From the NCBI RefSeq assembly GCF_003334815.1, contig NZ_QOWO01000028.1: a stretch of DNA of 53,280 bases. One strand, written 5' to 3'. The translations under genes were made by a program, and so were the position numbers. Positions 1 to 36,912 of this stretch are shown one piece after another. Positions within the stretch are counted from its first letter, which is position 1. The number at the start of each line of letters is the position of its first letter. Source of the DNA: Escherichia coli (lineage in GTDB: Bacteria > Pseudomonadota > Gammaproteobacteria > Enterobacterales > Enterobacteriaceae). The notes beneath the pieces are model-generated. The model was given only the letters and a program-made list of their open reading frames with translations. It had not been told where the DNA came from and searched no databases.

Positions 1-77
1 CTTTTCAAAAGGGTATTTTGGCTTTGACATATTAGGGGCTATTCCATTTCATCGTCCAACAAAATGGGTGCAGTACA
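1..77 (-). mobile_element. Terminal segment of an IS3-family insertion sequence (IS150-like), truncated by the window edge
   Basis: Reverse complement of 37-77 reads TGTACTGCACCCATTTTGTTGGACGATGAAATGGAATAGCC, which matches my recollection of the IS150 left inverted repeat and has the IS3-family TG terminus. Position about 33 bp upstream of the hokA ATG agrees with the known K-12 hokA/IS150 arrangement. From memory, not verified. Confidence 0.5.
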
Positions 78-12017: not shown

Positions 12018-12094
<77 letters not shown>

Positions 12095-12102
12095 AATTCG
12101 AA

Positions 12103-12131
12103 AAGCCTGCTCAACGAGCAGGCTTTTTTGC
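12103..12131 (+). terminator. Intrinsic terminator after proK
   Basis: AAGCCTGCTC-AACG-AGCAGGCTT hairpin followed by TTTTTT. Confidence 0.7.
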
Positions 12132-12184
12132 ATCTGCAGCTCATGAGGATGAGAACCTCCGGGGGCAGGGAGGTTCGACTCGAC

Positions 12185-12270
12185 GTAGGCCTGATAAGAC
12201 GCGTCAGCGTCGCATCAGGCAAATGTGCCGGCCATTGTCGGATGCGGCGCGACCGCCTTATTCGACCTAC
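12185..12270. repeat. REP/BIME palindromic units
   Basis: GTAGGCCTGATAAGACGCGTCAGCGTCGCATCAGGC and a second degenerate GCCGGATGCGGCG...CCTAC unit, typical of E. coli REP elements. Confidence 0.55.
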
Positions 12271-12804
12271 ACGACACACATTTCCCTGCCAAATTTGCGC
12301 CCCATATCTCACTATCCATTAACGGATTTGTGACAGAAACCATTGTCTTTTTTTATATTTGCTTAAATCTTTTTTTGCGTTACTTATGGCTGGCCCTGGC
12401 ATTTTCCGCTGTGCGTTTTAGCGTTCATGGTATTAATCGCTCAGATATCCACCTTTTCCTCAGATTTTTTTCATTAAATGCATAAAACTTAATCACCAAA
12501 TGTTGCTAAATATTAAGCTGATTGTTCTGGTCATGTTGGAGTAGCACAAATTTCTCTGCTGCAAATAGCTGTTTGAAGTTTTTTTAATCTTTGTTTGTGG
12601 ATTCTCACCGTTGGTGTAAATCCCGGTTGGCTGTATTGACGTTTTCACATTCTGTTGACAGATTGTAGGTCACGAGGGGCATTTTATGGAGGATCCGCAC
12701 TGTTACACTGATGTTAATTAGTACGGCATCCCCACCTCATAACGTTGACCCGACCGGGCAAAAAACAAAAAAGGTCAGGCAGCGACAACCCACTGCAAAG
12801 GGTT

Positions 12805-12836: not shown

Positions 12837-14444
12837 ATGCGTATTTCCTTGAAAAAGTCAGGGATGCTGAAGCTTGGTCTCAGCCTGGTGGCTATGACCG
12901 TCGCAGCAAGTGTTCAGGCTAAAACTCTGGTTTATTGCTCAGAAGGATCTCCGGAAGGGTTTAACCCGCAGCTGTTTACCTCCGGCACCACCTATGACGC
13001 CTCTTCCGTCCCGCTTTATAACCGTCTGGTTGAATTTAAAATCGGCACCACCGAAGTGATCCCGGGCCTCGCTGAAAAGTGGGAAGTCAGCGAAGACGGT
13101 AAAACCTATACCTTCCATCTGCGTAAAGGTGTGAAGTGGCACGACAATAAAGAATTCAAACCGACGCGTGAACTGAACGCCGATGATGTGGTGTTCTCGT
13201 TCGATCGTCAGAAAAACGCGCAAAACCCGTACCATAAAGTTTCTGGCGGCAGCTACGAATACTTCGAAGGCATGGGCTTGCCAGAGCTGATCAGTGAAGT
13301 GAAAAAGGTGGACGACAACACCGTTCAGTTTGTGCTGACTCGCCCGGAAGCGCCGTTCCTCGCTGACCTGGCAATGGACTTCGCCTCTATTCTGTCAAAA
13401 GAATATGCTGATGCGATGATGAAAGCCGGTACACCGGAAAAACTGGACCTCAACCCAATCGGAACCGGTCCGTTCCAGTTACAGCAGTATCAAAAAGATT
13501 CCCGTATCCGCTACAAAGCGTTTGATGGCTACTGGGGCACCAAACCGCAGATCGATACGCTGGTTTTCTCTATTACCCCTGACGCTTCCGTGCGTTACGC
13601 GAAATTGCAGAAGAATGAATGCCAGGTGATGCCGTACCCGAACCCGGCAGATATCGCTCGCATGAAGCAGGATAAATCCATCAATCTGATGGAAATGCCG
13701 GGGCTGAACGTCGGTTATCTCTCGTATAACGTGCAGAAAAAACCACTCGATGACGTGAAAGTTCGCCAGGCTCTGACCTACGCGGTGAACAAAGACGCGA
13801 TCATCAAAGCGGTTTATCAGGGCGCGGGCGTATCAGCGAAAAACCTGATCCCGCCAACCATGTGGGGCTATAACGACGACGTTCAGGACTACACCTACGA
13901 TCCTGAAAAAGCGAAAGCCTTGCTGAAAGAAGCGGGTCTGGAAAAAGGTTTCTCCATCGACCTGTGGGCGATGCCGGTACAACGTCCGTATAACCCGAAC
14001 GCTCGCCGCATGGCGGAGATGATTCAGGCAGACTGGGCGAAAGTCGGCGTGCAGGCCAAAATTGTCACCTACGAATGGGGTGAGTACCTCAAGCGTGCGA
14101 AAGATGGCGAGCACCAGACGGTAATGATGGGCTGGACTGGCGATAACGGGGATCCGGATAACTTCTTCGCCACCCTGTTCAGCTGCGCCGCCTCTGAACA
14201 AGGCTCCAACTACTCAAAATGGTGCTACAAACCGTTTGAAGATCTGATTCAACCGGCGCGTGCTACCGACGACCACAATAAACGCGTTGAACTGTACAAA
14301 CAAGCGCAGGTGGTGATGCACGATCAGGCTCCGGCACTGATCATCGCTCACTCCACCGTGTTTGAACCGGTACGTAAAGAAGTTAAAGGCTATGTGGTTG
14401 ATCCATTAGGCAAACATCACTTCGAAAACGTCTCTATCGAATAA
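12837..14444 (+). CDS. dppA: Dipeptide ABC transporter periplasmic binding protein DppA (535 aa)
   Basis: Signal peptide followed by a family-5 solute-binding protein; first gene of the dppABCDF cluster. Confidence 0.97.
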   Translation: MRISLKKSGMLKLGLSLVAMTVAASVQAKTLVYCSEGSPEGFNPQLFTSGTTYDASSVPLYNRLVEFKIGTTEVIPGLAEKWEVSEDGKTYTFHLRKGVKWHDNKEFKPTRELNADDVVFSFDRQKNAQNPYHKVSGGSYEYFEGMGLPELISEVKKVDDNTVQFVLTRPEAPFLADLAMDFASILSKEYADAMMKAGTPEKLDLNPIGTGPFQLQQYQKDSRIRYKAFDGYWGTKPQIDTLVFSITPDASVRYAKLQKNECQVMPYPNPADIARMKQDKSINLMEMPGLNVGYLSYNVQKKPLDDVKVRQALTYAVNKDAIIKAVYQGAGVSAKNLIPPTMWGYNDDVQDYTYDPEKAKALLKEAGLEKGFSIDLWAMPVQRPYNPNARRMAEMIQADWAKVGVQAKIVTYEWGEYLKRAKDGEHQTVMMGWTGDNGDPDNFFATLFSCAASEQGSNYSKWCYKPFEDLIQPARATDDHNKRVELYKQAQVVMHDQAPALIIAHSTVFEPVRKEVKGYVVDPLGKHHFENVSIE

Positions 14445-20648: not shown

Positions 20649-22328
20649 TTACTGCGGGTAAGGCACCCAGTCGCCGCCGTTCAGGCGAACGTACGGTTTA
20701 TCCTGGTATTGAATAACTACTGCATTTGAGTTCTCGGAGACCGGTGCTGTTTGTGGCAACCCACTGGTGAGTTTTTTCCAGTCAACATTGTCTTCGGTGA
20801 AAATCTTGCCATCGAGAACGCGAACCACCAGATCGGAGATAGCCAGGAAGCTGCTCGGTTGTTCGATGACAATCGGTGCCCCCTGATGCGGTGCCTTCAT
20901 GCCGAAGAATTTCACCCCAACGGGGACGTCGGTGATAGACGGGCTAGGGATATCACGTAGGCCAGATACCTGCATTCTGTCGCCCTTCAGCGCGCCGCCG
21001 TGTTCCGGCACCACGACCACCATCACTTTACGACCCGATTTCTCAAGTTCAGTAAAGAAGGCGTCCAGTTCATCAAAGAATTTCTGCGCCCGCGCTTTGT
21101 AATCCGCTGTTTTGCTGACCCCCGGATAATGGTTGCCGTCATGCAGTGGAAGCGTGTTGTAGAACGTGGCACTACGGCTGTTTTTATCTTTTTCGGTAAC
21201 GTCCAGCCAGCGGTTAAGCACAGCGGTATCGTCATAAACCGGCGAACCATCAAAGCCCAGCAAAATAACCGGCAGATTTGTTTGATCCATCAATTCGCTC
21301 TGCATGCCGCCATTTTCGCGAACTTCTTTCAAAAAACCGCCGAACTGGCCGTTATGTCCCATCATCAGGTGCTGGGTAAAGCCCAGTTTCGAAAGGTTAT
21401 CAAACAGATAGCAGTCGTTATTTGCCGGTTGATACAGATTAGTGTGCGAAGTCTGCCCGCAGCTGGCGCGCAGTAAACGGATCGCCGCCGGGCCACTGTA
21501 GGAGGTGGCGGAGTTAAAGTTCTTGAACTCAATATCGAAATGCGACCACAGTGGATGCGACATCAACCCGGCGGCTTCTATATCCGACCAGGAAAGCGAA
21601 CAGATGTTAATCACCAGTAGTTCAAATGGCTGAGCATCAGCGGGCAGCGAAGACGGGAAGGTCGATTTACGTTTCGCCTCCGCGTTATAGAAATTATTCA
21701 GCCAGGCGTTAAGGTTCGCCGTTGTTGGCGGTGCAGTTTGTGCGGGCATATCACCCACTACCGGTGCGCCACCCGTCGCCGCAACGGTTGCCGCTGCGTT
21801 ACCACCCGTCGTTGTTACAGTGGTCGTCGGTTGTCCGGCTGGCCACAAGGAGAAACTTGGTCCCGCCAGGGTAAGTACGTTCAGCCATAGCAGTATGGCA
21901 ACCACAAAAACGGTAATGCGAATCCATTGTGACAGGAATAACCAGGCCACTAATAAAACAAAAATGGCCCCAATCATCTGCCAGTTAATAAAGCGTGTGA
22001 CAAGGTCGATTAAATAATCGGTACTGAACCCCGCCACCTGCGAACCCTGGCTCATTATGCTTTCCGGGCCAGGCAACCAGGTGTCATGCCAGAACAAAGC
22101 AAAGCCGATCGGCAGGGCAATCCAGTGGCGCAAGCGATGCAGGCTGTAGCGCGGAAGGGGCATCAGCAGAAACGCGGCAAACACCAAATTGAGGAGCGGA
22201 TGGAAGTTAAGATATCCCGCCCACAACAGGCCGAACTTAACCAGAAAATAGAAGTTCCAGCCGGAAAGGCCGCGCCAGTATTGCCAGAGGGAAGAAGGCA
22301 TGGCGGTATTTTGCGTAAATTGAGTCAT
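20649..22328 (-). CDS. bcsG: Cellulose phosphoethanolamine transferase BcsG (559 aa)
   Basis: N-terminal TM region, Thr/Ala/Gly-rich linker, C-terminal alkaline-phosphatase-like domain; last gene of bcsEFG. Confidence 0.92.
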
Positions 22329-22516
22329 TTTTTGGTTGCCCTGGCTTTTTCCGTGCGGCGTAACGTCCCGGCCGGTTTAACATAACGAGGTTTAGCAAAG
22401 AACAAACGTAAGGTGTCGCGAATGCGTCGCAAAGAGTGCCGCGCCAGATAGCCCAGCGGGAAAAATATCAGTGCGCAAACGACAATAATTTCAATGATAT
22501 CGCTGATGGTCATCAT
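22325..22516 (-). CDS. bcsF: Small membrane protein BcsF (63 aa)
   Basis: Single-TM 63-aa peptide with 4-bp overlaps to both bcsE and bcsG. Confidence 0.85.
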
Positions 22517-24084
22517 GATGAGCGCTCCACAGCATCATCTAACAGTCGCATGGGTTCTGGTATTCGTCGCCAGTGGCGACCATCGTGCTCGGCATTGATG
22601 ACCGGTTTAGAACTTTGCGTTAAAGGCAGCGGCATGCCCCATTGTTCTGGGGCAAGCAAGCGCATCTGCACCAGCTCGGCACTGATTTGATCATCTTCAA
22701 ACCAGACCATACGGTTTGAGAAAATGTCGCCAGTAGGCAATGGGAAAATATGATTCAACGCGGTATCCAGATCGTTAATCCGACAGAATGAGAGAAACAG
22801 CACCAGCCGATTACCGCCAATGGTCATGATATCGCCGGTACGGTTAGGGCGACACAGCGTCAGGGCTTGTTCAACGCGGATACCCGGTACCGGACGTAGG
22901 GCAACCAGAACGCCTTTACCGTGGGCAGGTAATAGAGGGTTATTCATCATGTTGTTGACGGCATTACAGAACACATCCCACTTCTGGAAACCACGCAGTT
23001 TGAGCGGCTGGGTCATTGACAGCAAGGTAGTGATATCTTCCGGCACATAGCGACTAAACTTCTGCCCTTGCACGCTTTCGATCATCGTCAGACAACGGGA
23101 GAGTGGCGCATTCCACGGAATAACCATATTTGCACCGCAGGCCAATAACAAACGTTCATCGGTGGCGCGCAGGCTAGCGGTATTTTCCCGCACGAGGATT
23201 TTCATCGCACTACCGCGCTGGCGACGCAGGGTATGAATGCTGCGGGCCAGTGGCTCGATTTGCGCATTTTGCTGTAAAGAAAAGACCACCGTCGCCGCCT
23301 GAGCGGTACGGGCTTCATTGAACAGGACTTCGTTATTGTTGAACAGTTGCCAGTGTTCCGATAGCGGCGGCGCACCTTCCAGTACAGCAACATTACTCAG
23401 AATGCGTTTTTCGTCGCTGCGTGGTTGGATCTCCGCCTCTTCGCTTTGAACTAATGTCCAGATACCATTTTGTTGCTGAACGCTAAGCTGCTGACGGGCG
23501 CTGACCCCTTTTTCGTTGCACCAGAAGGCAATATCCAGCAAATGTTGGTCACCCTGAAAACGCAAACTGGCAAGACCAAAAAGTGAACGGTATTCCTCAA
23601 GCAACAATGAAAATTGTTTATCGTTATTATTTCCGGGATTAATTACCAAAAGCGAACAATGGTTTAACCTGCTCCATTTATTCATTTTATCCAACCATGA
23701 GCGAAGCCGCTCGGCAGGAATGTTTTGCCATGCGTTATTTGCGCAAACAAGAATAAAAAGGTAATTATGGGGATCAATAGAACACTGCAAATCACGGGTC
23801 AAATAGTATAGACCTTTTTCATGATTTAGCATTGAAAATAATTTTATTTTTTCCGGCCCTTGAGAATCATCTAATTGAAAGATTTTCGCCGGATCGCTGT
23901 CCATGCTAATGACCGCGACGTGTGCGGTTTCAGCCTGGGATGCAATTGTTTGATTCGCCAGACTGATAGCATCTTCATGGCGATCGACGTTAAACCACCA
24001 GACGCCGCCTGCTGGCATATGTCGCAGCTCATCCCATAATGATGAGATACCGATAGAGAATACAGGGTCCACAATGTCCCTCAT
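22513..24084 (-). CDS. bcsE: Cellulose biosynthesis protein BcsE (c-di-GMP-binding GIL-domain protein, 523 aa)
   Basis: 523-aa ORF divergent from bcsR; matches recalled BcsE. Confidence 0.92.
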
Positions 24085-24356: not shown

Positions 24357-24545
24357 ATGAATAACAATGAACCAGATACTCTGCCTGATCCCGCGATAGG
24401 CTATATCTTCCAGAATGATATTGTGGCGTTAAAGCAGGCATTTTCACTGCCTGATATTGATTATGCCGATATTTCCCAACGCGAACAGTTGGCCGCGGCA
24501 TTAAAACGCTGGCCGTTGCTGGCAGAGTTTGCGCAACAAAAGTAG
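24357..24545 (+). CDS. bcsR: Small cellulose synthesis regulator BcsR (YhjR, 62 aa)
   Basis: 62-aa ORF immediately upstream of bcsQ; TAG stop. Confidence 0.85.
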   Translation: MNNNEPDTLPDPAIGYIFQNDIVALKQAFSLPDIDYADISQREQLAAALKRWPLLAEFAQQK

Positions 24546-24556
24546 GGGATTGGTGA

Positions 24557-25309
24557 ATGGCCGTACTGGGATTGCAGGGGGTGCGGGGAGGCGTGGGGAC
24601 AACAACCATCACCGCCGCATTAGCCTGGTCATTACAAATGTTGGGAGAAAATGTCCTGGTGGTCGATGCCTGCCCGGACAACTTGTTGCGCCTGTCATTT
24701 AATGTTGATTTTACCCACCGTCAGGGCTGGGCCAGAGCGATGCTGGATGGCCAGGACTGGCGTGACGCTGGGTTGCGCTACACCTCGCAGCTCGATTTGC
24801 TGCCTTTTGGTCAGTTATCCATTGAAGAACAAGAAAATCCACAGCACTGGCAAACCCGGCTGAGCGATATTTGCTCCGGCTTACAGCAACTAAAAGCCAG
24901 CGGGCGTTACCAGTGGATTTTAATCGACTTACCGCGTGATGCCTCGCAGATAACCCACCAGCTGCTGAGTTTGTGCGATCACTCGCTGGCAATCGTCAAT
25001 GTGGATGCCAACTGCCATATCCGACTGCATCAGCAAGCGCTGCCGGATGGCGCACATATTTTGATTAATGACTTCCGTATTGGCAGTCAGGTTCAGGACG
25101 ATATTTACCAGCTTTGGTTGCAAAGCCAGCGCCGATTACTGCCGATGCTCATTCATCGTGATGAAGCGATGGCTGAATGCCTGGCGGCTAAGCAACCAGT
25201 AGGTGAATATCGCAGTGATGCGCTGGCGGCTGAAGAGATACTGACGCTGGCGAACTGGTGCCTGTTGAACTACTCCGGGCTGAAAACGCCAGTCGGGAGT
25301 GCATCATGA
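24557..25309 (+). CDS. bcsQ: ParA/MinD-like ATPase BcsQ (250 aa), uninterrupted
   Basis: Deviant Walker A GVRGGVGTTTI; codon 6 is TTG (Leu), so the reading frame is intact; 4-bp overlap with bcsA. Confidence 0.93.
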   Translation: MAVLGLQGVRGGVGTTTITAALAWSLQMLGENVLVVDACPDNLLRLSFNVDFTHRQGWARAMLDGQDWRDAGLRYTSQLDLLPFGQLSIEEQENPQHWQTRLSDICSGLQQLKASGRYQWILIDLPRDASQITHQLLSLCDHSLAIVNVDANCHIRLHQQALPDGAHILINDFRIGSQVQDDIYQLWLQSQRRLLPMLIHRDEAMAECLAAKQPVGEYRSDALAAEEILTLANWCLLNYSGLKTPVGSAS

Positions 25310-27924
25310 GTATCCTGACCCGGTGGTTGCTTATCCCGCCGGTCAACGCGCGGCTTATCGGGCGTTATCGCGATTATCGTCGTCACGGTGCGTCGGCTTT
25401 CAGCGCGACGCTCGGCTGTTTCTGGATGATCCTGGCCTGGATTTTTATTCCGCTGGAGCACCCGCGCTGGCAGCGTATTCGCGCAGAACATAAAAACCTG
25501 TATCCGCATATCAACGCCTCGCGTCCGCGTCCGCTGGACCCGGTCCGTTATCTCATTCAAACATGCTGGTTATTGATCGGTGCATCGCGCAAAGAAACGC
25601 CGAAACCGCGCAGGCGGGCATTTTCAGGTCTGCAAAATATTCGTGGACGTTACCATCAATGGATGAACGAGCTGCCTGAGCGCGTTAGCCATAAAACACA
25701 GCATCTGGATGAGAAAAAAGAGCTCGGTCATTTGAGTGCCGGGGCGCGGCGGTTGATCCTCGGTATCATCGTCACCTTCTCGCTGATTCTGGCGTTAATC
25801 TGCGTTACTCAGCCGTTTAACCCGCTGGCGCAGTTTATCTTCCTGATGCTGCTGTGGGGGGTAGCGCTGATCGTACGGCGGATGCCGGGGCGCTTCTCGG
25901 CGCTAATGTTGATTGTGCTGTCGCTGACCGTTTCTTGCCGTTATATCTGGTGGCGTTACACCTCTACGCTGAACTGGGACGATCCGGTCAGCCTGGTGTG
26001 CGGGCTTATTCTGCTCTTCGCTGAAACGTACGCGTGGATTGTGCTGGTGCTCGGCTACTTCCAGGTAGTATGGCCGCTGAATCGTCAGCCGGTGCCATTG
26101 CCGAAAGATATGTCGCTGTGGCCGTCGGTGGATATCTTTGTCCCGACTTACAACGAAGATCTCAACGTGGTGAAAAATACCATTTACGCCTCGCTGGGTA
26201 TCGACTGGCCGAAAGATAAGCTGAATATCTGGATCCTTGATGACGGCGGCAGGGAAGAGTTTCGCCAGTTTGCGCAAAACGTGGGGGTGAAATATATCGC
26301 CCGCACCACTCATGAACATGCGAAAGCAGGCAACATCAACAATGCGCTGAAATATGCCAAAGGCGAGTTCGTGTCGATTTTCGACTGCGACCACGTACCA
26401 ACGCGATCGTTCTTGCAAATGACCATGGGCTGGTTCCTGAAAGAAAAACAGCTGGCGATGATGCAGACGCCGCACCACTTCTTCTCACCGGACCCGTTTG
26501 AACGCAACCTGGGGCGTTTCCGTAAAACGCCGAACGAAGGCACGCTGTTCTATGGTCTGGTGCAGGATGGCAACGATATGTGGGACGCCACTTTCTTCTG
26601 CGGTTCCTGTGCGGTGATTCGTCGTAAGCCGCTGGATGAAATTGGCGGCATTGCTGTCGAAACCGTGACTGAAGATGCGCATACTTCTCTGCGGTTGCAC
26701 CGTCGTGGCTATACCTCCGCGTATATGCGTATTCCGCAGGCGGCGGGGCTGGCGACCGAAAGTCTGTCGGCGCATATCGGTCAGCGTATTCGCTGGGCGC
26801 GCGGGATGGTACAAATCTTCCGTCTCGATAACCCGCTCACCGGTAAAGGGCTGAAGTTTGCTCAGCGGCTATGTTACGTCAACGCCATGTTCCACTTCTT
26901 GTCGGGCATTCCACGGCTGATCTTCCTGACTGCGCCGCTGGCGTTCCTGCTGCTTCATGCCTACATCATCTATGCGCCAGCGTTGATGATCGCCCTATTC
27001 GTGCTGCCGCATATGATCCATGCCAGCCTGACCAACTCCAAGATCCAGGGCAAATATCGCCACTCTTTCTGGAGTGAAATCTACGAAACGGTGCTGGCGT
27101 GGTATATCGCACCACCGACGCTGGTGGCGCTGATTAACCCGCACAAAGGCAAATTTAACGTCACCGCCAAAGGTGGACTGGTGGAAGAAGAGTACGTCGA
27201 CTGGGTGATCTCGCGGCCCTACATCTTCCTTGTCCTGCTCAACCTGGTGGGCGTTGCGGTAGGCATCTGGCGCTACTTCTATGGCCCGCCAACCGAGATG
27301 CTCACCGTGGTCGTCAGTATGGTGTGGGTGTTCTACAACCTGATTGTTCTTGGCGGCGCAGTTGCGGTATCGGTAGAAAGCAAACAGGTACGCCGATCGC
27401 ACCGCGTGGAGATGACGATGCCCGCGGCAATTGCCCGCGAAGATGGTCACCTCTTCTCGTGTACCGTTCAGGATTTCTCCGACGGTGGTTTGGGGATCAA
27501 GATCAACGGTCAGGCGCAGATTCTGGAAGGGCAGAAAGTGAATCTGTTGCTTAAACGCGGTCAGCAGGAATACGTCTTCCCGACCCAGGTGGCGCGCGTG
27601 ATGGGTAATGAAGTTGGGCTGAAATTAATGCCGCTCACCACCCAGCAACATATCGATTTTGTGCAGTGTACGTTTGCCCGTGCGGATACATGGGCGCTCT
27701 GGCAGGACAGCTACCCGGAAGATAAGCCGCTGGAAAGTCTGCTGGATATTCTGAAGCTCGGCTTCCGTGGCTACCGCCATCTGGCGGAGTTTGCGCCTTC
27801 TTCGGTGAAGGGCATATTCCGTGTGCTGACTTCTCTGGTTTCCTGGGTTGTATCGTTTATTCCGCGCCGCCCGGAGCGGAGCGAAACGGCACAACCATCG
27901 GATCAGGCTTTGGCTCAACAATGA
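25306..27924 (+). CDS. bcsA: Cellulose synthase catalytic subunit BcsA (872 aa)
   Basis: GT-2 motifs including QRIRWARG (QxxRW) and a C-terminal PilZ domain; start trimmed to MSILTRWLL. Confidence 0.97.
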   Translation: MSILTRWLLIPPVNARLIGRYRDYRRHGASAFSATLGCFWMILAWIFIPLEHPRWQRIRAEHKNLYPHINASRPRPLDPVRYLIQTCWLLIGASRKETPKPRRRAFSGLQNIRGRYHQWMNELPERVSHKTQHLDEKKELGHLSAGARRLILGIIVTFSLILALICVTQPFNPLAQFIFLMLLWGVALIVRRMPGRFSALMLIVLSLTVSCRYIWWRYTSTLNWDDPVSLVCGLILLFAETYAWIVLVLGYFQVVWPLNRQPVPLPKDMSLWPSVDIFVPTYNEDLNVVKNTIYASLGIDWPKDKLNIWILDDGGREEFRQFAQNVGVKYIARTTHEHAKAGNINNALKYAKGEFVSIFDCDHVPTRSFLQMTMGWFLKEKQLAMMQTPHHFFSPDPFERNLGRFRKTPNEGTLFYGLVQDGNDMWDATFFCGSCAVIRRKPLDEIGGIAVETVTEDAHTSLRLHRRGYTSAYMRIPQAAGLATESLSAHIGQRIRWARGMVQIFRLDNPLTGKGLKFAQRLCYVNAMFHFLSGIPRLIFLTAPLAFLLLHAYIIYAPALMIALFVLPHMIHASLTNSKIQGKYRHSFWSEIYETVLAWYIAPPTLVALINPHKGKFNVTAKGGLVEEEYVDWVISRPYIFLVLLNLVGVAVGIWRYFYGPPTEMLTVVVSMVWVFYNLIVLGGAVAVSVESKQVRRSHRVEMTMPAAIAREDGHLFSCTVQDFSDGGLGIKINGQAQILEGQKVNLLLKRGQQEYVFPTQVARVMGNEVGLKLMPLTTQQHIDFVQCTFARADTWALWQDSYPEDKPLESLLDILKLGFRGYRHLAEFAPSSVKGIFRVLTSLVSWVVSFIPRRPERSETAQPSDQALAQQ

Positions 27925-27934
27925 TGATAACGCG

Positions 27935-30274
27935 ATGAAAAGAAAACTATTCTGGATTTGTGCAGTGGCTATGGGGATGAGTGCGTTCCCCTCTTTCATG
28001 ACGCAGGCGACGCCAGCAACGCAACCACTGATCAATGCTGAGCCAGCTGTAGCCGCCCAGACGGAACAAAATCCGCAGGTGGGGCAAGTGATGCCGGGCG
28101 TGCAGGGCGCTGATGCGCCAGTCGTGGCGCAGAACGGTCCTTCGCGTGATGTGAAGCTGACCTTTGCGCAAATTGCACCGCCGCCGGGCAGCATGGTGCT
28201 ACGTGGCATTAACCCGAACGGCAGCATTGAGTTTGGTATGCGCAGCGATGAAGTGGTGACGAAGGCGATGCTCAACCTCGAATACACCCCATCGCCATCG
28301 TTACTGCCTGTCCAGTCGCAGTTAAAGGTTTATCTCAATGATGAACTGATGGGCGTGCTGCCAGTGACCAAAGAACAGTTGGGTAAAAAAACGCTGGCGC
28401 AAATGCCCATTAACCCACTGTTTATTACCGACTTCAACCGTGTACGGCTGGAGTTTGTCGGCCATTATCAGGACGTGTGCGAAAACCCGGCCAGCACCAC
28501 GCTTTGGCTGGATGTTGGGCGGAGCAGTGGACTGGATCTGACCTATCAGACCCTGAATGTGAAGAATGACCTGTCACACTTCCCGGTGCCATTCTTTGAC
28601 CCGCGCGATAACCGCACCAACACCTTGCCGATGGTCTTTGCGGGTGCGCCGGATGTTGGGCTGCAACAAGCCTCTGCCATTGTCGCCTCGTGGTTTGGTT
28701 CGCGTTCTGGCTGGCGTGGGCAGAACTTCCCGGTACTCTATAACCAACTGCCGGATCGCAATGCCATTGTCTTTGCAACCAACGACAAACGGCCGGACTT
28801 CCTGCGCGATCATCCGGCGGTAAAAGCCCCGGTGATTGAGATGATTAACCATCCGCAGAATCCTTACGTCAAACTGCTGGTGGTGTTTGGTCGTGACGAC
28901 AAAGACCTGTTGCAGGCAGCGAAAGGTATCGCTCAGGGTAACATTCTGTTCCGTGGTGAAAGCGTGGTAGTGAATGAAGTGAAACCGCTGCTACCGCGTA
29001 AGCCGTACGATGCGCCGAACTGGGTACGTACCGATCGTCCGGTTACATTTGGCGAACTGAAAACCTATGAAGAACAGTTACAATCCAGCGGTCTTGAGCC
29101 AGCAGCGATTAACGTTTCGCTAAACCTGCCGCCGGATCTCTACCTGATGCGCAGTACCGGCATTGATATGGATATTAATTACCGCTACACCATGCCGCCG
29201 GTGAAAGACAGTTCGCGGATGGATATCAGCCTGAATAACCAGTTCCTGCAATCCTTCAACCTGAGCAGCAAACAGGAGGCGAACCGCCTGCTGCTGCGGA
29301 TTCCGGTATTACAAGGTTTGCTGGATGGCAAAACAGATGTCTCTATTCCGGCGCTGAAACTGGGCGCGACCAACCAGCTGCGCTTCGACTTTGAGTATAT
29401 GAACCCGATGCCGGGCGGTTCGGTGGATAACTGTATTACCTTCCAGCCGGTGCAGAATCATGTGGTGATTGGTGACGACTCCACCATCGACTTCTCGAAG
29501 TATTACCACTTCATCCCGATGCCGGATCTACGCGCCTTTGCTAACGCGGGCTTCCCATTCAGCCGGATGGCGGATCTGTCGCAAACCATCACCGTGATGC
29601 CGAAAGCGCCTAACGAAGCACAGATGGAAACGTTGCTGAATACTGTTGGTTTTATCGGCGCACAGACGGGCTTCCCGGCGATTAATCTGACGGTGACCGA
29701 TGATGGCAGCACCATTCAGGGCAAAGATGCCGACATCATGATCATCGGTGGTATCCCGGACAAACTGAAAGACGATAAGCAGATCGACCTATTGGTGCAG
29801 GCGACCGAAAGCTGGGTGAAAACACCGATGCGCCAGACCCCGTTCCCCGGCATTGTGCCGGACGAGAGCGATCGCGCGGCAGAAACCCGGTCAACGCTGA
29901 CCTCTTCCGGTGCGATGGCGGCGGTGATTGGCTTCCAGTCGCCGTATAACGACCAGCGCAGCGTGATTGCGCTGTTGGCAGATAGCCCACGCGGTTATGA
30001 AATGCTTAACGATGCGGTGAACGATAGCGGCAAACGCGCCACCATGTTCGGTTCGGTCGCGGTGATCCGCGAGTCCGGTATCAACAGCCTACGTGTTGGC
30101 GACGTTTATTACGTAGGTCATCTGCCGTGGTTCGAGCGCGTGTGGTATGCGCTGGCAAACCATCCGATTCTGCTGGCGGTGCTGGCGGCTATCAGTGTGA
30201 TATTGCTGGCATGGGTACTGTGGCGTCTGCTGCGAATTATTAGTCGTCGTCGTCTTAACCCGGATAACGAGTAA
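27935..30274 (+). CDS. bcsB: Cellulose synthase periplasmic subunit BcsB (779 aa)
   Basis: Signal peptide MKRKLFWICAVAMGMSAF and a C-terminal TM anchor; start trimmed from the track ORF. Confidence 0.95.
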   Translation: MKRKLFWICAVAMGMSAFPSFMTQATPATQPLINAEPAVAAQTEQNPQVGQVMPGVQGADAPVVAQNGPSRDVKLTFAQIAPPPGSMVLRGINPNGSIEFGMRSDEVVTKAMLNLEYTPSPSLLPVQSQLKVYLNDELMGVLPVTKEQLGKKTLAQMPINPLFITDFNRVRLEFVGHYQDVCENPASTTLWLDVGRSSGLDLTYQTLNVKNDLSHFPVPFFDPRDNRTNTLPMVFAGAPDVGLQQASAIVASWFGSRSGWRGQNFPVLYNQLPDRNAIVFATNDKRPDFLRDHPAVKAPVIEMINHPQNPYVKLLVVFGRDDKDLLQAAKGIAQGNILFRGESVVVNEVKPLLPRKPYDAPNWVRTDRPVTFGELKTYEEQLQSSGLEPAAINVSLNLPPDLYLMRSTGIDMDINYRYTMPPVKDSSRMDISLNNQFLQSFNLSSKQEANRLLLRIPVLQGLLDGKTDVSIPALKLGATNQLRFDFEYMNPMPGGSVDNCITFQPVQNHVVIGDDSTIDFSKYYHFIPMPDLRAFANAGFPFSRMADLSQTITVMPKAPNEAQMETLLNTVGFIGAQTGFPAINLTVTDDGSTIQGKDADIMIIGGIPDKLKDDKQIDLLVQATESWVKTPMRQTPFPGIVPDESDRAAETRSTLTSSGAMAAVIGFQSPYNDQRSVIALLADSPRGYEMLNDAVNDSGKRATMFGSVAVIRESGINSLRVGDVYYVGHLPWFERVWYALANHPILLAVLAAISVILLAWVLWRLLRIISRRRLNPDNE

Positions 30275-30280
30275 TTGAAG

Positions 30281-31387
30281 ATGAATGTGTTGCGTAGTGG
30301 AATCGTGACGATGCTGCTGCTGGCTGCCTTTAGTGTTCAGGCAGCCTGTACCTGGCCTGCCTGGGAGCAGTTTAAAAAGGATTACATCAGTCAGGAAGGG
30401 CGCGTCATCGACCCCAGCGACGCGCGCAAAATCACCACCTCCGAAGGGCAAAGTTACGGCATGTTCTCTGCCCTGGCGGCTAACGACCGTGCAGCTTTCG
30501 ATAATATTCTCGACTGGACGCAGAACAATCTCGCTCAGGGTTCTTTAAAAGAACGTTTGCCCGCCTGGCTGTGGGGCAAGAAAGAGAACAGTAAGTGGGA
30601 AGTGCTGGACAGCAATTCGGCCTCCGATGGTGATGTCTGGATGGCCTGGTCGTTGCTGGAGGCGGGGCGTTTGTGGAAAGAGCAGCGTTATACCGACATC
30701 GGCAGCGCGTTGCTAAAACGTATCGCGCGGGAGGAAGTGGTGACGGTGCCTGGGCTGGGTTCCATGTTGTTACCGGGCAAAGTGGGTTTTGCTGAGGATA
30801 ACAGCTGGCGTTTTAACCCCAGCTACCTGCCGCCGACGCTGGCGCAGTATTTCACCCGCTTTGGCGCGCCGTGGACCACGCTGCGCGAAACCAATCAACG
30901 TTTATTGCTGGAAACCGCCCCGAAAGGTTTTTCGCCAGACTGGGTGCGCTATGAGAAAGACAAAGGCTGGCAGCTAAAAGCCGAAAAAACATTGATCAGC
31001 AGCTACGACGCTATCCGCGTTTACATGTGGGTAGGCATGATGCCTGACAGCGATCCGCAAAAAGCGCGGATGCTCAACCGGTTTAAACCGATGGCGACAT
31101 TCACTGAGAAAAACGGTTATCCGCCGGAAAAAGTGGATGTGGCTACGGGGAAAGCGCAGGGTAAAGGACCAGTCGGTTTTTCTGCCGCCATGCTGCCCTT
31201 TTTACAAAACCGCGATGCGCAGGCCGTTCAGCGCCAGCGCGTGGCCGATAACTTTCCCGGCAGCGATGCCTATTACAACTATGTGCTGACCCTGTTTGGA
31301 CAAGGCTGGGATCAACACCGTTTCCGCTTCTCGACAAAAGGTGAGTTATTACCTGACTGGGGCCAGGAATGCGCAAATTCACACTAA
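30281..31387 (+). CDS. bcsZ: Endo-1,4-beta-glucanase BcsZ (GH8, 368 aa)
   Basis: Signal peptide followed by a GH8-like domain; start at MNVLRSG. Confidence 0.93.
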
Positions 31388-34300
31388 ACATATTCACGCT
31401 TTCCCTCGGTCTGGCCGTCATGCCGATGGTCGAGGCAGCACCAACCGCTCAGCAACAGTTGCTGGAGCAAGTTCGGTTAGGCGAAGCGACCCATCGTGAA
31501 GATCTGGTGCAACAGTCGTTATATCGGCTGGAACTTATTGATCCGAATAACCCGGACGTCGTTGCCGCCCGTTTCCGTTCTTTGTTACGTCAGGGCGATA
31601 TTGATGGCGCGCAAAAACAGCTCGATCGGCTGTCGCAGTTAGCGCCGAGTTCAAATGCGTATAAATCGTCGCGGACTACGATGCTACTTTCCACGCCGGA
31701 TGGTCGTCAGGCACTGCAACAGGCACGATTGCAGGCGACGACCGGTCATGCAGAAGAAGCTGTGGCGAGTTACAACAAACTGTTCAACGGTGCGCCGCCG
31801 GAAGGTGACATTGCTGTCGAGTACTGGAGTACGGTGGCGAAAATTCCGGCTCGCCGTGGCGAAGCGATTAATCAGTTAAAACGCATCAATGCGGATGCAC
31901 CGGGCAATACGGGCCTGCAAAACAATCTGGCGCTATTGCTGTTTAGTAGCGATCGCCGTGACGAAGGTTTTGCCGTCCTGGAACAGATGGCAAAATCGAA
32001 CGCCGGGCGCGAAGGGGCCTCTAAAATCTGGTACGGGCAGATTAAAGACATGCCCGTCAGTGATGCCAGTGTGTCGGCGCTGAAAAAATATCTCTCGATC
32101 TTTAGTGATGGCGATAGCGTGGCGGCTGCGCAATCGCAACTGGCAGAACAGCAAAAACAGCTGGCCGATCCTGCTTTCCGCGCTCGTGCGCAAGGTTTAG
32201 CGGCGGTGGACTCTGGTATGGCGGGTAAAGCCATTCCCGAACTACAACAGGCGGTGCGGGCGAACCCGAAAGACAGTGAAGCTCTGGGGGCGCTGGGCCA
32301 GGCGTATTCTCAGAAAGGCGATCGCGCCAATGCAGTGGCGAATCTGGAAAAAGCCCTCGCACTGGACCCGCACAGCAGCAACAACGACAAATGGAACAGT
32401 CTGCTGAAAGTAAACCGCTACTGGCTGGCGATCCAGCAGGGCGATGCTGCGCTGAAAGCCAATAATCCTGACCGGGCAGAACGCCTGTTCCAGCAGGCGC
32501 GTAATGTCGATAACACCGACAGTTATGCAGTGCTGGGGCTGGGCGATGTGGCGATGGCGCGAAAAGATTATCCCGCCGCCGAACGTTATTATCAGCAGAC
32601 CTTGCGTATGGACAGCGGCAACACTAACGCCGTGCGCGGGCTGGCAAATATTTACCGCCAGCAATCGCCAGAAAAAGCTGAAGCGTTTATCGCCTCGCTC
32701 TCTGCCAGTCAGCGGCGTAGCATTGATGATATCGAACGCAGCCTGCAAAACGACCGTCTGGCACAGCAGGCAGAGGCACTGGAAAACCAGGGCAAATGGG
32801 CGCAGGCGGCAGCACTTCAGCGGCAACGACTGGCGCTGGACCCCGGCAGCGTATGGATTACTTACCGACTTTCGCAGGATCTCTGGCAGGCCGGACAACG
32901 CAGCCAGGCCGATACGTTAATGCGCAATCTGGCGCAGCAGAAGTCGAACGACCCGGAGCAGGTTTACGCTTACGGGCTGTACCTCTCTGGTCATGACCAG
33001 GACAGAGCGGCGCTGGCGCATATCAACAGCCTGCCGCGTGCGCAGTGGAACAGCAATATTCAGGAGCTGGTTAATCGACTGCAAAGCGATCAGGTGCTGG
33101 AAACCGCTAACCGCCTGCGAGAAAGCGGCAAAGAGGCAGAAGCGGAAGCGATGCTGCGCCAGCAACCACCTTCCACGCGTATTGACCTCACGCTGGCTGA
33201 CTGGGCGCAACAACGACGTGATTACACCGCCGCCCGCGCTGCATATCAGAATGTCCTGACGCGGGAGCCAGCTAACGCCGACGCCATTCTTGGTCTGACG
33301 GAAGTGGATATTGCTGCCGGTGACAAAGCGGCGGCACGTAGCCAGCTGGCGAAACTGCCCGCTACCGATAACGCCTCGCTGAACACACAGCGGCGCGTGG
33401 CGCTGGCACAGGCGCAGCTTGGCGATACCGCAGCAGCGCAGCGGACGTTTAATAAGTTGATCCCGCAGGCAAAATCTCAGCCACCGTCGATGGAAAGCGC
33501 GATGGTGCTGCGTGATGGTGCGAAGTTTGAAGCGCAGGCGGGCGATCCAACGCAGGCGCTGGAAACCTACAAAGACGCCATGGTCGCATCCGGTGTGACT
33601 ACGACGCGTCCGCAGGATAACGACACCTTTACCCGACTGACCCGTAACGACGAGAAAGATGACTGGCTGAAACGTGGCGTGCGCAGCGATGCGGCGGACC
33701 TCTATCGCCAGCAGGATCTTAACGTCACCCTTGAGCACGATTACTGGGGTTCGAGCGGCACCGGTGGTTACTCCGATCTGAAAGCGCACACTACCATGTT
33801 GCAGGTGGATGCGCCGTATTCTGACGGGCGGATGTTCTTTCGCAGTGATTTCGTCAATATGAACGTCGGCAGTTTCTCCACTAATGCCGATGGCAAATGG
33901 GATGACAACTGGGGCACCTGTACATTACAGGACTGTAGCGGCAACCGCAGCCAGTCGGATTCCGGTGCCAGCGTGGCGGTCGGCTGGCGAAATGACGTCT
34001 GGAGCTGGGATATCGGTACCACGCCGATGGGCTTCAACGTGGTGGATGTGGTCGGCGGCATCAGTTACAGCGATGATATCGGGCCGCTGGGTTACACCGT
34101 TAACGCCCACCGTCGGCCCATCTCCAGTTCTTTGCTGGCCTTTGGTGGGCAAAAAGACTCCCCGAGCAATACCGGGAAAAAATGGGGTGGCGTACGTGCC
34201 GACGGTGTGGGGCTAAGTCTGAGCTACGATAAAGGTGAAGCAAACGGCGTCTGGGCATCGCTTAGTGGCGACCAGTTAACCGGTAAAAATGTCGAAGATA

Positions 34301-34842
34301 ACTGGCGCGTGCGCTGGATGACGGGCTATTACTATAAGGTCATTAACCAGAACAATCGCCGCGTCACAATCGGCCTGAACAACATGATCTGGCATTACGA
34401 CAAAGATCTGAGTGGCTACTCACTCGGTCAGGGCGGTTACTACAGTCCGCAGGAATACCTGTCGTTTGCCATACCGGTGATGTGGCGGGAGCGCACGGAA
34501 AACTGGTCGTGGGAGCTGGGTGCGTCTGGCTCGTGGTCGCATTCACGCACCAAAACCATGCCGCGTTATCCGCTGATGAATCTGATCCCGACCGACTGGC
34601 AGGAAGAAGCTGCGCGGCAATCCAACGATGGCGGCAGCAGTCAGGGCTTCGGCTACACGGCGCGGGCATTACTTGAACGACGTGTTACTTCCAACTGGTT
34701 TGTTGGCACGGCAATTGATATCCAGCAGGCGAAAGATTACGCACCCAGCCATTTCCTGCTCTACGTACGTTATTCCGCCGCCGGATGGCAGGGTGACATG
34801 GATTTACCGCCGCAGCCGCTGATACCTTACGCCGACTGGTAA
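31369..34842 (+). CDS. bcsC: Cellulose synthase outer-membrane/TPR subunit BcsC (1157 aa)
   Basis: Signal peptide, long TPR-rich region, C-terminal beta-barrel ending in W; 19-bp overlap with bcsZ. Confidence 0.95.
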
Positions 34843-34923: not shown

Positions 34924-36912
34924 TTGCGCGTAAGTCGCTCGTTAACAATCAAGCAGATGGCAATGGTGGCAGCCGTTGTCCTGGTGTTCGTTTTTATTTT
35001 TTGCACCGTTTTGCTGTTCCATCTGGTCCAGCAGAATCGCTATAACACGGCTACGCAACTGGAAAGCATTGCTCGCTCTGTCCGCGAACCCTTATCTTCA
35101 GCTATTTTGAAAGGCGATATTCCCGAAGCGGAAGCTATTCTTGCCAGCATTAAACCGGCAGGCGTGGTCAGCCGTGCCGATGTAGTGCTGCCTAACCAGT
35201 TCCAGGCGCTGCGTAAAAGTTTTATTCCAGAGCGCCCGGTGCCGGTAATGGTTACTCGCCTGTTTGAGCTACCGGTTCAAATCTCGCTGGGCGTTTACTC
35301 GCTCGAACGTCCGGCAAACCCGCAGCCAATTGCCTATCTGGTACTACAGGCGGATTCCTTCCGTATGTATAAGTTCGTGATGAGCACCCTCTCAACGTTA
35401 GTGACCATTTACTTACTTTTGTCGCTTATCCTGACCGTCGCCATCAGCTGGTGCATTAACCGCCTGATTTTGCATCCGTTACGCAATATTGCTCGCGAAC
35501 TTAACGCCATCCCAGCCAAGGAGCTTGTTGGTCACCAACTGGCATTACCGCGTCTGCATCAGGACGATGAAATCGGTATGTTGGTGCGCAGTTACAACCT
35601 CAACCAGCAATTGCTGCAGCGCCATTATGAAGAACAGAACGAAAATGCGATGCGCTTCCCGGTGTCGGATTTGCCGAACAAAGCCTTGCTGATGGAGATG
35701 CTGGAGCAGGTTGTCGCGCGTAAACAAACCACCGCGCTGATGATCATCACCTGTGAAACCCTGCGTGATACTGCGGGCGTGCTGAAAGAGGCGCAACGAG
35801 AAATTCTGCTGCTGACGCTGGTGGAAAAACTCAAATCGGTACTGTCGCCACGTATGATCCTCGCGCAGATTAGCGGTTATGACTTTGCTGTCATTGCCAA
35901 CGGTGTACAGGAACCGTGGCACGCAATCACCTTAGGTCAGCAAGTGCTCACTATCATGAGCGAGCGCCTGCCGATTGAACGTATTCAACTCCGTCCGCAC
36001 TGTAGCATTGGCGTGGCGATGTTCTACGGCGATCTCACCGCCGAACAGCTTTACAGTCGCGCTATTTCTGCGGCATTTACCGCTCGCCATAAAGGCAAGA
36101 ATCAGATTCAGTTCTTTGATCCGCAGCAGATGGAAGCCGCCCAGAAGCGGTTGACGGAAGAGAGCGATATCCTTAATGCACTGGAAAATCATCAGTTTGC
36201 TATTTGGTTACAGCCACAGGTCGAGATGACCAGCGGTAAACTGGTCAGTGCGGAAGTGTTACTGCGTATCCAGCAACCGGATGGCAGTTGGGACCTGCCG
36301 GATGGCTTAATCGATCGCATTGAGTGCTGTGGGCTGATGGTTACCGTCGGTCACTGGGTGCTGGAAGAGTCCTGTCGATTGCTTGCAGCCTGGCAAGAGC
36401 GCGGCATTATGCTGCCCTTGTCGGTAAACCTCTCTGCGCTGCAACTGATGCACCCGAATATGGTGGCGGATATGCTGGAACTGTTAACCCGCTATCGCAT
36501 TCAGCCGGGAACACTGATTCTGGAAGTGACAGAAAGCCGACGTATTGACGACCCTCATGCTGCGGTGGCAATCCTCCGTCCGCTGCGCAATGCCGGAGTT
36601 CGGATGGCGCTGGATGATTTCGGCATGGGCTACGCAGGGCTGCGTCAGCTGCAGCATATGAAATCGTTGCCAATCGACGTACTGAAAATCGACAAAATGT
36701 TTGTTGAAGGCTTGCCGGGAGATAGCAGCATGATTGCTGCAATTATCATGCTGGCGCAGAGCCTGAACTTACAAATGATTGCCGAAGGCGTGGAGACTGA
36801 AGCACAACGCGACTGGCTGGCAAAAGCGGGCGTTGGTATTGCCCAGGGCTTCCTTTTTGCTCGCCCACTCCCTATTGAAATCTTCGAAGAGAGTTACCTG
36901 GAAGAAAAGTAG
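34924..36912 (+). CDS. pdeK: c-di-GMP phosphodiesterase PdeK (YhjK; HAMP-GGDEF-EAL, 662 aa)
   Basis: Two N-terminal TM segments, a degenerate GGDEF region and an EAL domain; apparent TTG start. Confidence 0.85.

Follow-up and report, generated by a model that had tools for sequence, protein, structure and literature searches.

Here we report that the bcsQ gene in a stretch of Escherichia coli DNA of 53,280 nucleotides (hereafter the window) is intact, and that it is very probably the ordinary ancestral bcsQ of the bcsRQABZC/bcsEFG locus of a natural E. coli isolate, which belongs to the clade with IS150 beside hokA and is a relative of K-12 but not K-12 itself. The gene would be intact because the DNA stems from a natural E. 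coli lineage, neither K-12 nor a repaired K-12, which is close to K-12 in the bcs region and would never have gained the T>A change of K-12. It is normal for E. coli to have bcsQ intact (about 93% of those sequenced), and the feature is ordinary and already known.

The whole window was aligned to the genome of MG1655 (NC_000913.3), with which it is collinear from the IS150 beside hokA via the bcs genes into gadA. Nine SNP sites were typed in MG1655 and J53 (both K-12) and in the wild strains 210221272 (swine), CEA106S (human biopsy), BHUCD01 (patient) and DLI.6n (marine sediment); E. coli C and LD27-1 were compared via their annotation tables only. The features used are listed below in window coordinates.

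1..77, strand not assigned: end of IS150 (77 bases), directly next to the hokA locus (hokA at about 110-262); window position 1 is within the insertion sequence
12076..12183, plus strand: single copy of a 108-bp repeat from the 3' end of proK, beginning in the last 19 nt of this tRNA-Pro gene
about 12837-14444: dppA
20649..24084, minus strand: divergent bcsEFG operon, all genes intact and identical to MG1655
20649-22328, minus strand: bcsG, intact
22325-22516, minus strand: bcsF, intact
22513-24084, minus strand: bcsE, intact
24357..24545, plus strand: bcsR (yhjR), heading the bcsRQABZC operon and ending 11 nt before the bcsQ start; identical to MG1655
24557..25309, plus strand: bcsQ, intact with 250 codons and a stop; encodes a MinD/ParA-type ATPase that belongs to the cellulose secretion system
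24572..24574, plus strand: bcsQ codon 6, TTG (Leu); TAG in K-12 via T>A at 24573
25306..27924, plus strand: bcsA, cellulose synthase catalytic subunit, intact and without difference from MG1655
27935..30274, plus strand: bcsB, intact, with the wild residues T165, N184 and R224 (S, K and S in K-12) and a private synonymous SNP at 29044
30281..31387, plus strand: bcsZ, intact and identical to MG1655
31369..34842, plus strand: bcsC, intact; codon 553 is AAC, with the synonymous AAT in K-12 (33027)
34924..36912, plus strand: pdeK (hmsP), c-di-GMP phosphodiesterase gene adjoining the operon, with the private change V561M (36604 G>A)

The bcsQ gene and the cellulose locus

A reading of the sequence without database searches had described the bcsQ frame as open with leucine at codon 6, and this description was correct: the gene begins ATG GCC GTA CTG GGA TTG CAG at 24557 and continues for 250 codons up to bcsA, where its stop codon TGA (25307-25309) and the bcsA start codon ATG (25306-25308) form a 4-nt ATGA overlap. 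The encoded protein matched the NCBIfam BcsQ equivalog model NF007460 with 542.9 bits (cut-off 399), residues 1-250 aligning to model positions 1-250, and TIGR03371 with 297.7 bits (cut-off 157.85), so that it has a full-length equivalog match above cut-off to the BcsQ family (NCBIfam NF007460 / TIGR03371; Pfam PF06564 CBP_BcsQ). The N-terminal MinD/ParA-type P-loop region is present (GVRGGVGTTT, residues 8-17), residues ~4-41 gave weak matches to ParA, MinD and KGGVGR-variant AAA models, and MinD in the PDB (4V02) matched with E = 3e-6. Crystallised E. coli BcsQ from BcsRQ complexes (PDB 6YBU, 6YAR and others) aligned over the full length of 250 residues with E = 3e-168; 6YBU differs from the window protein at two of the 250 residues, with N in place of D172 and K in place of A249.

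The genomic context is that of bcsQ as well, with bcsR upstream, bcsA directly downstream and coupled, bcsBZC following, and bcsEFG in divergent orientation. The same operon layout and ATGA coupling to bcsA are found in genomes with wild-type E. coli bcsQ, whose product (RefSeq WP_000279528.1, annotated in E. coli C, strain 210221272 and LD27-1) shows no difference from that of the window. The DNA from 24357 to 25400, which comprises bcsR, bcsQ and the 5' part of bcsA, is 100% identical in many complete genomes, including those of E. coli C and the ETEC strain H10407. The bcsQ of the window is thus a real, well-known gene rather than a chance open reading frame. In 2009 Le Quere and Ghigo reportedly found that E. 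coli BcsQ is needed for cellulose secretion and linked it to ATP binding and to a complex with BcsR and BcsE. BcsQ together with BcsR would form an essential part of the cellulose secretion machine, with bcsQ probably coupled translationally to bcsA through the ATGA overlap.

Each of the nine bcs genes, bcsRQABZC as well as bcsEFG, has its full length in the window, and the frameshift elsewhere in the bcs genes that the sequence-only reading had named as evidence against an intact system does not occur in any of the nine reading frames. Codon 6 aside, the DNA of bcsQ, bcsA, bcsZ, bcsE, bcsF and bcsG equals that of MG1655, and bcsC differs only synonymously. With codon 6 of bcsQ read as leucine, the Bcs proteins of the window are therefore the K-12 versions, with BcsB as the sole exception. 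The BcsB protein equals that of DLI.6n, and its annotation (WP_000823624.1) is common to E. coli C, CEA106S and BHUCD01; as far as its sequence tells, it is the common wild allele.

The stop codon in K-12 and its repair

The statement that K-12 laboratory strains have TAG at codon 6 of bcsQ was borne out by the alignment. Position 3695969 of MG1655 (NC_000913.3), which corresponds to 24573 of the window, is A, and J53 has the same base; a TTG in the K-12 reference, which would have spoken against this position of the SNP, was not found. In the MG1655 annotation, bcsQ (b3534) is a pseudogene. It differs from the bcsQ of the window at one of 753 nucleotides, and the flanking genes and the IS150 at hokA are alike in both. 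The automated RefSeq annotation of J53 calls bcsQ as an intact CDS of 242 amino acids, which starts at the GTG of codon 9, just past the amber stop (window equivalent 24581-25309), and so masks the pseudogene status that is visible in the curated MG1655 record.

The T>A change turns codon 6 of K-12 into an amber stop, with loss of cellulose production. This premature stop from the TTG/TAG change (17T>A) is described as the cause of the lost cellulose in K-12, and W3110 became the cellulose-positive AR3110 when its codon 6 was restored to TTG (PMC5944007; PMC5014196; PMC7397504). The claim that TAG abolishes cellulose production thus agrees with the literature; a polar effect of the stop codon on downstream genes is one option for the mechanism, the other being inactivation of BcsQ itself (according to secondary sources). 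AR3110 has been described as W3110 apart from codon 6 only. Serra et al. are said to have introduced this strain in 2013 as a 'de-domesticated' derivative of W3110, in which TAG at bcsQ codon 6 had become TTG. The BcsQ protein encoded by AR3110, which works in that strain, should equal the one encoded in the window.

Comparison with K-12 and wild strains

The window differs from MG1655 by nine substitutions and one 168-bp indel and is otherwise 99.98% identical. Beyond codon 6, this leaves eight SNPs and the indel versus MG1655, and seven SNPs and the indel versus J53. Five of the sites are K-12-wide: 24573 (bcsQ L6*), 28428, 28486 and 28604 (BcsB T165S, N184K and R224S), and 33027 (synonymous, bcsC). 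At these sites the window agrees with the wild strains 210221272, CEA106S, BHUCD01 and DLI.6n (CEA106S is not covered at 33027), and TTG was present at codon 6 in every wild genome examined. The markers of the K-12 lineage, namely TAG at bcsQ codon 6 (A at 24573, the amber stop), BcsB S165, K184 and S224, and AAT at bcsC codon 553, are all absent from the window. Nonsense or missense changes make up four of the five K-12-wide changes. The five SNPs cluster within 8.5 kb, inside the bcs operon (p about 0.003 if five sites were placed at random in 53 kb), and the three missense sites in bcsB fall within 177 bp (p about 3e-4), a span within 60 codons of BcsB. Within the 53 kb, K-12-diagnostic sites occur only in 24573-33027, and the rest of the chromosome is outside their reach; the genome-wide markers of K-12 (rfb-50, rph-1, ilvG, and the prophage and IS complement) map beyond the window.

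Three SNPs are private to the window: 2178 (yiaF, synonymous), 29044 (bcsB, synonymous) and 36604 (PdeK V561M). None of the 5,426 complete E. coli genomes has the private alleles, and these three SNPs set the nearest complete genomes apart from the 53 kb of the window; over 28281-53280, the best complete genomes are about 2 mismatches below a perfect match, as estimated from bit scores. One contig of an NCBI draft assembly (DABAWY010000030.1 of GCA_012531265.1) showed 100% identity to the window across the 21,989 bp that were fetched and carries both 29044T and 36604A. The contig (53,125 bp) covers nearly the same interval as the window, and its first base is just past the end of IS150. The exact PdeK V561M protein is encoded on four public contigs only, one of which is DABAWY010000030.1, and the window seems to stem from a natural-isolate lineage that was sampled repeatedly. 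The substitution is located three residues before the DDFG motif of the EAL domain, and an interaction of PdeK with cellulose synthase and with DgcC has been reported (PMC7397504). The site at 12595, some 240 nt upstream of dppA, separates K-12 sublines: MG1655 carries G, while T is found in J53, in the window and in all wild strains examined.

The indel corresponds to the number of proK repeats. The repeat occurs twice, at a distance of 168 bp, in MG1655, J53, 210221272 and BHUCD01, and once in DLI.6n, CEA106S and the window; the annotation of LD27-1 has the same 168-bp spacing. The missing repeat unit of 168 bp could reflect a true difference in copy number, or else a collapse in the assembly. 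PGAP annotates an RtT sRNA at this repeat. A search of the window with Rfam yielded no RtT, but only the tRNA and a naRNA4/REP-type match at 12188-12267.

Several of the wild relatives have lesions of their own in the bcs genes. DLI.6n, CEA106S and BHUCD01, the wild genomes closest to the window, carry a second, independent nonsense mutation in bcsQ (W234*, TGG>TAG, at 25257 in window coordinates), which leaves a gap of 47 nt before bcsA and thereby removes the ATGA coupling; this mutation is absent from the window. Strain 210221272 has an internal stop in bcsB (at 28103 in window coordinates), and E. coli C has an internal stop in bcsE and a frameshift in bcsA. Loss of cellulose genes seems to be recurrent in the clade of the window's close relatives. 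The chromosome of BHUCD01 (NZ_CM183442.1; 4,641,498 bp) is within 154 bp of the size of MG1655 and has near-equal coordinates in the bcs region; despite this MG1655-like size, it has the wild bcs alleles and W234*, and the assembly may have been scaffolded on the MG1655 reference.

Diagnostic value of the IS150-hokA junction

The sequence-only reading had taken IS150 next to hokA as a K-12-like trait, an assignment that did not hold. Of 5,426 complete E. coli genomes, 1,659 share the junction; they come from pigs, chickens, humans, cats, frogs and water, and the junction is also found in the annotation of CEA106S, DLI.6n and LD27-1. By comparison, among 5,245 complete genomes with a match, 349 contain the TAG version of the 61-mer exactly as in K-12, and the four of these that were sampled look like laboratory strains; the K-12 block of bcsB alleles (S165, K184, S224) occurs in 357 of 5,340 genomes. 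Because so many complete genomes from many hosts share it, the IS150-hokA junction, although present in the window, was rejected as a marker that is diagnostic of K-12. Strains of a large natural clade have it in common, and codon 6 is as a rule intact.

Origin of the chromosome

From the intact codon, it had been proposed that the chromosome comes either from a cellulose-proficient background or from a repaired K-12 derivative. A non-K-12 background with an intact bcs locus agrees with the typing, whereas the second option conflicts with the absence of the other K-12 alleles and with the private SNPs. In its strict form, the second option is a laboratory K-12 in which bcsQ codon 6 was repaired by site-directed mutation, as in AR3110 and P1 transductants. 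Such a strain would have TTG at codon 6 exactly as the window does, and would also account for its 99.98% identity and collinearity with MG1655 outside this codon, including the IS150 at hokA. Since codon 6 is the only difference described between AR3110 and W3110, however, AR3110 should have kept the K-12 alleles of bcsB and bcsC, and the window has the wild alleles at all four of these further K-12-wide sites. It also has three private SNPs and one proK repeat unit fewer, and an identical contig is present in an independent NCBI draft assembly. The spacer between dppF and yhjV, which was used by the Hengge laboratory to move the repaired bcsQ allele, contains no FRT or kan scar, as the alignment to MG1655 is ungapped there. 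The identity to W3110 and MG1655 in everything but codon 6 that such a repair would leave is thus not what was found, and we rejected an AR3110-type repair as extremely improbable.

Alternatively, wild DNA of at least about 21 kb (roughly 12,100-33,027 of the window, including the bcs genes) might have entered a K-12 strain by P1 transduction or conjugation; all polarisable differences between K-12 and the window do fall into one block that P1 could carry, and the flanks are identical to K-12 apart from private SNPs. The flanks are equally identical to many wild genomes, however, and therefore hold no K-12 signal. Moreover, the private SNPs at 2178 and 36604 are located on either side of the block, the haplotype is found on four public contigs from isolate assemblies, and the window contains no selectable marker or scar. 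We consider a K-12 recipient of this kind unlikely, though less so than a point repair.

A T at 24573 that arose as a sequencing or assembly error in a K-12 genome would involve a single base only, and the window looks like a short-read contig, because both of its ends are in repeats (IS150 and gadA). The first end is 77 bp inside IS150 and the second (53280) is inside gadA, which has a near-identical paralogue, gadB. An error of this kind is scarcely credible, given that the four further K-12 marker sites are also non-K-12 and that TTG is the allele of every wild genome examined. The overlap with the NCBI draft starts only at 24924, so that it confirms the bcsB and bcsC sites and has 24573 outside its range. 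Descent from a natural lineage close to K-12 in the bcs region is therefore the reading that we prefer.

Cellulose capacity and implications

Judged by its reading frames, the bcs locus of the window is structurally competent for cellulose synthesis. With leucine at codon 6, BcsQ, A, Z, C, E, F and G equal the K-12 proteins and are thus the same set that works in AR3110. The locus could make phosphoethanolamine-cellulose if CsgD, DgcC and RpoS were functional; csgD, dgcC and rpoS, the genes of these key regulators, lie outside the window. Only one of six phylogroup-A strains was calcofluor-positive (PMC5944007), and intact bcs reading frames did not predict cellulose production in H10407 and BL21. 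The phenotype is not readable from the sequence, because H10407, whose bcsR-bcsQ DNA is 100% identical to that of the window, was calcofluor-negative (PMC5944007). Intact bcs genes alone therefore do not predict cellulose production.

It is a tentative reading, and one that we regard as doubtful, that the window represents the closest available pre-K-12 state of the bcs genes, that K-12 has four other derived changes (BcsB T165S, N184K and R224S, and the synonymous change in bcsC), and that PdeK V561M could alter c-di-GMP control. If the BcsB substitutions were functional, the loss of cellulose in K-12 would be a multi-hit event, and AR3110 would still make its cellulose with a BcsB that is not wild-type. 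The private V561M of PdeK, which adjoins the EAL DDFG motif, could change the local c-di-GMP control of the synthase.

In E. coli, bcsQ is intact by default, a K-12 strain is not recognisable from IS150 beside hokA, and there is nothing unusual to explain in the window. The set of markers consisting of the bcsQ TAG, the three BcsB substitutions and the one synonymous bcsC SNP separates true K-12, point-repaired K-12 and wild relatives.
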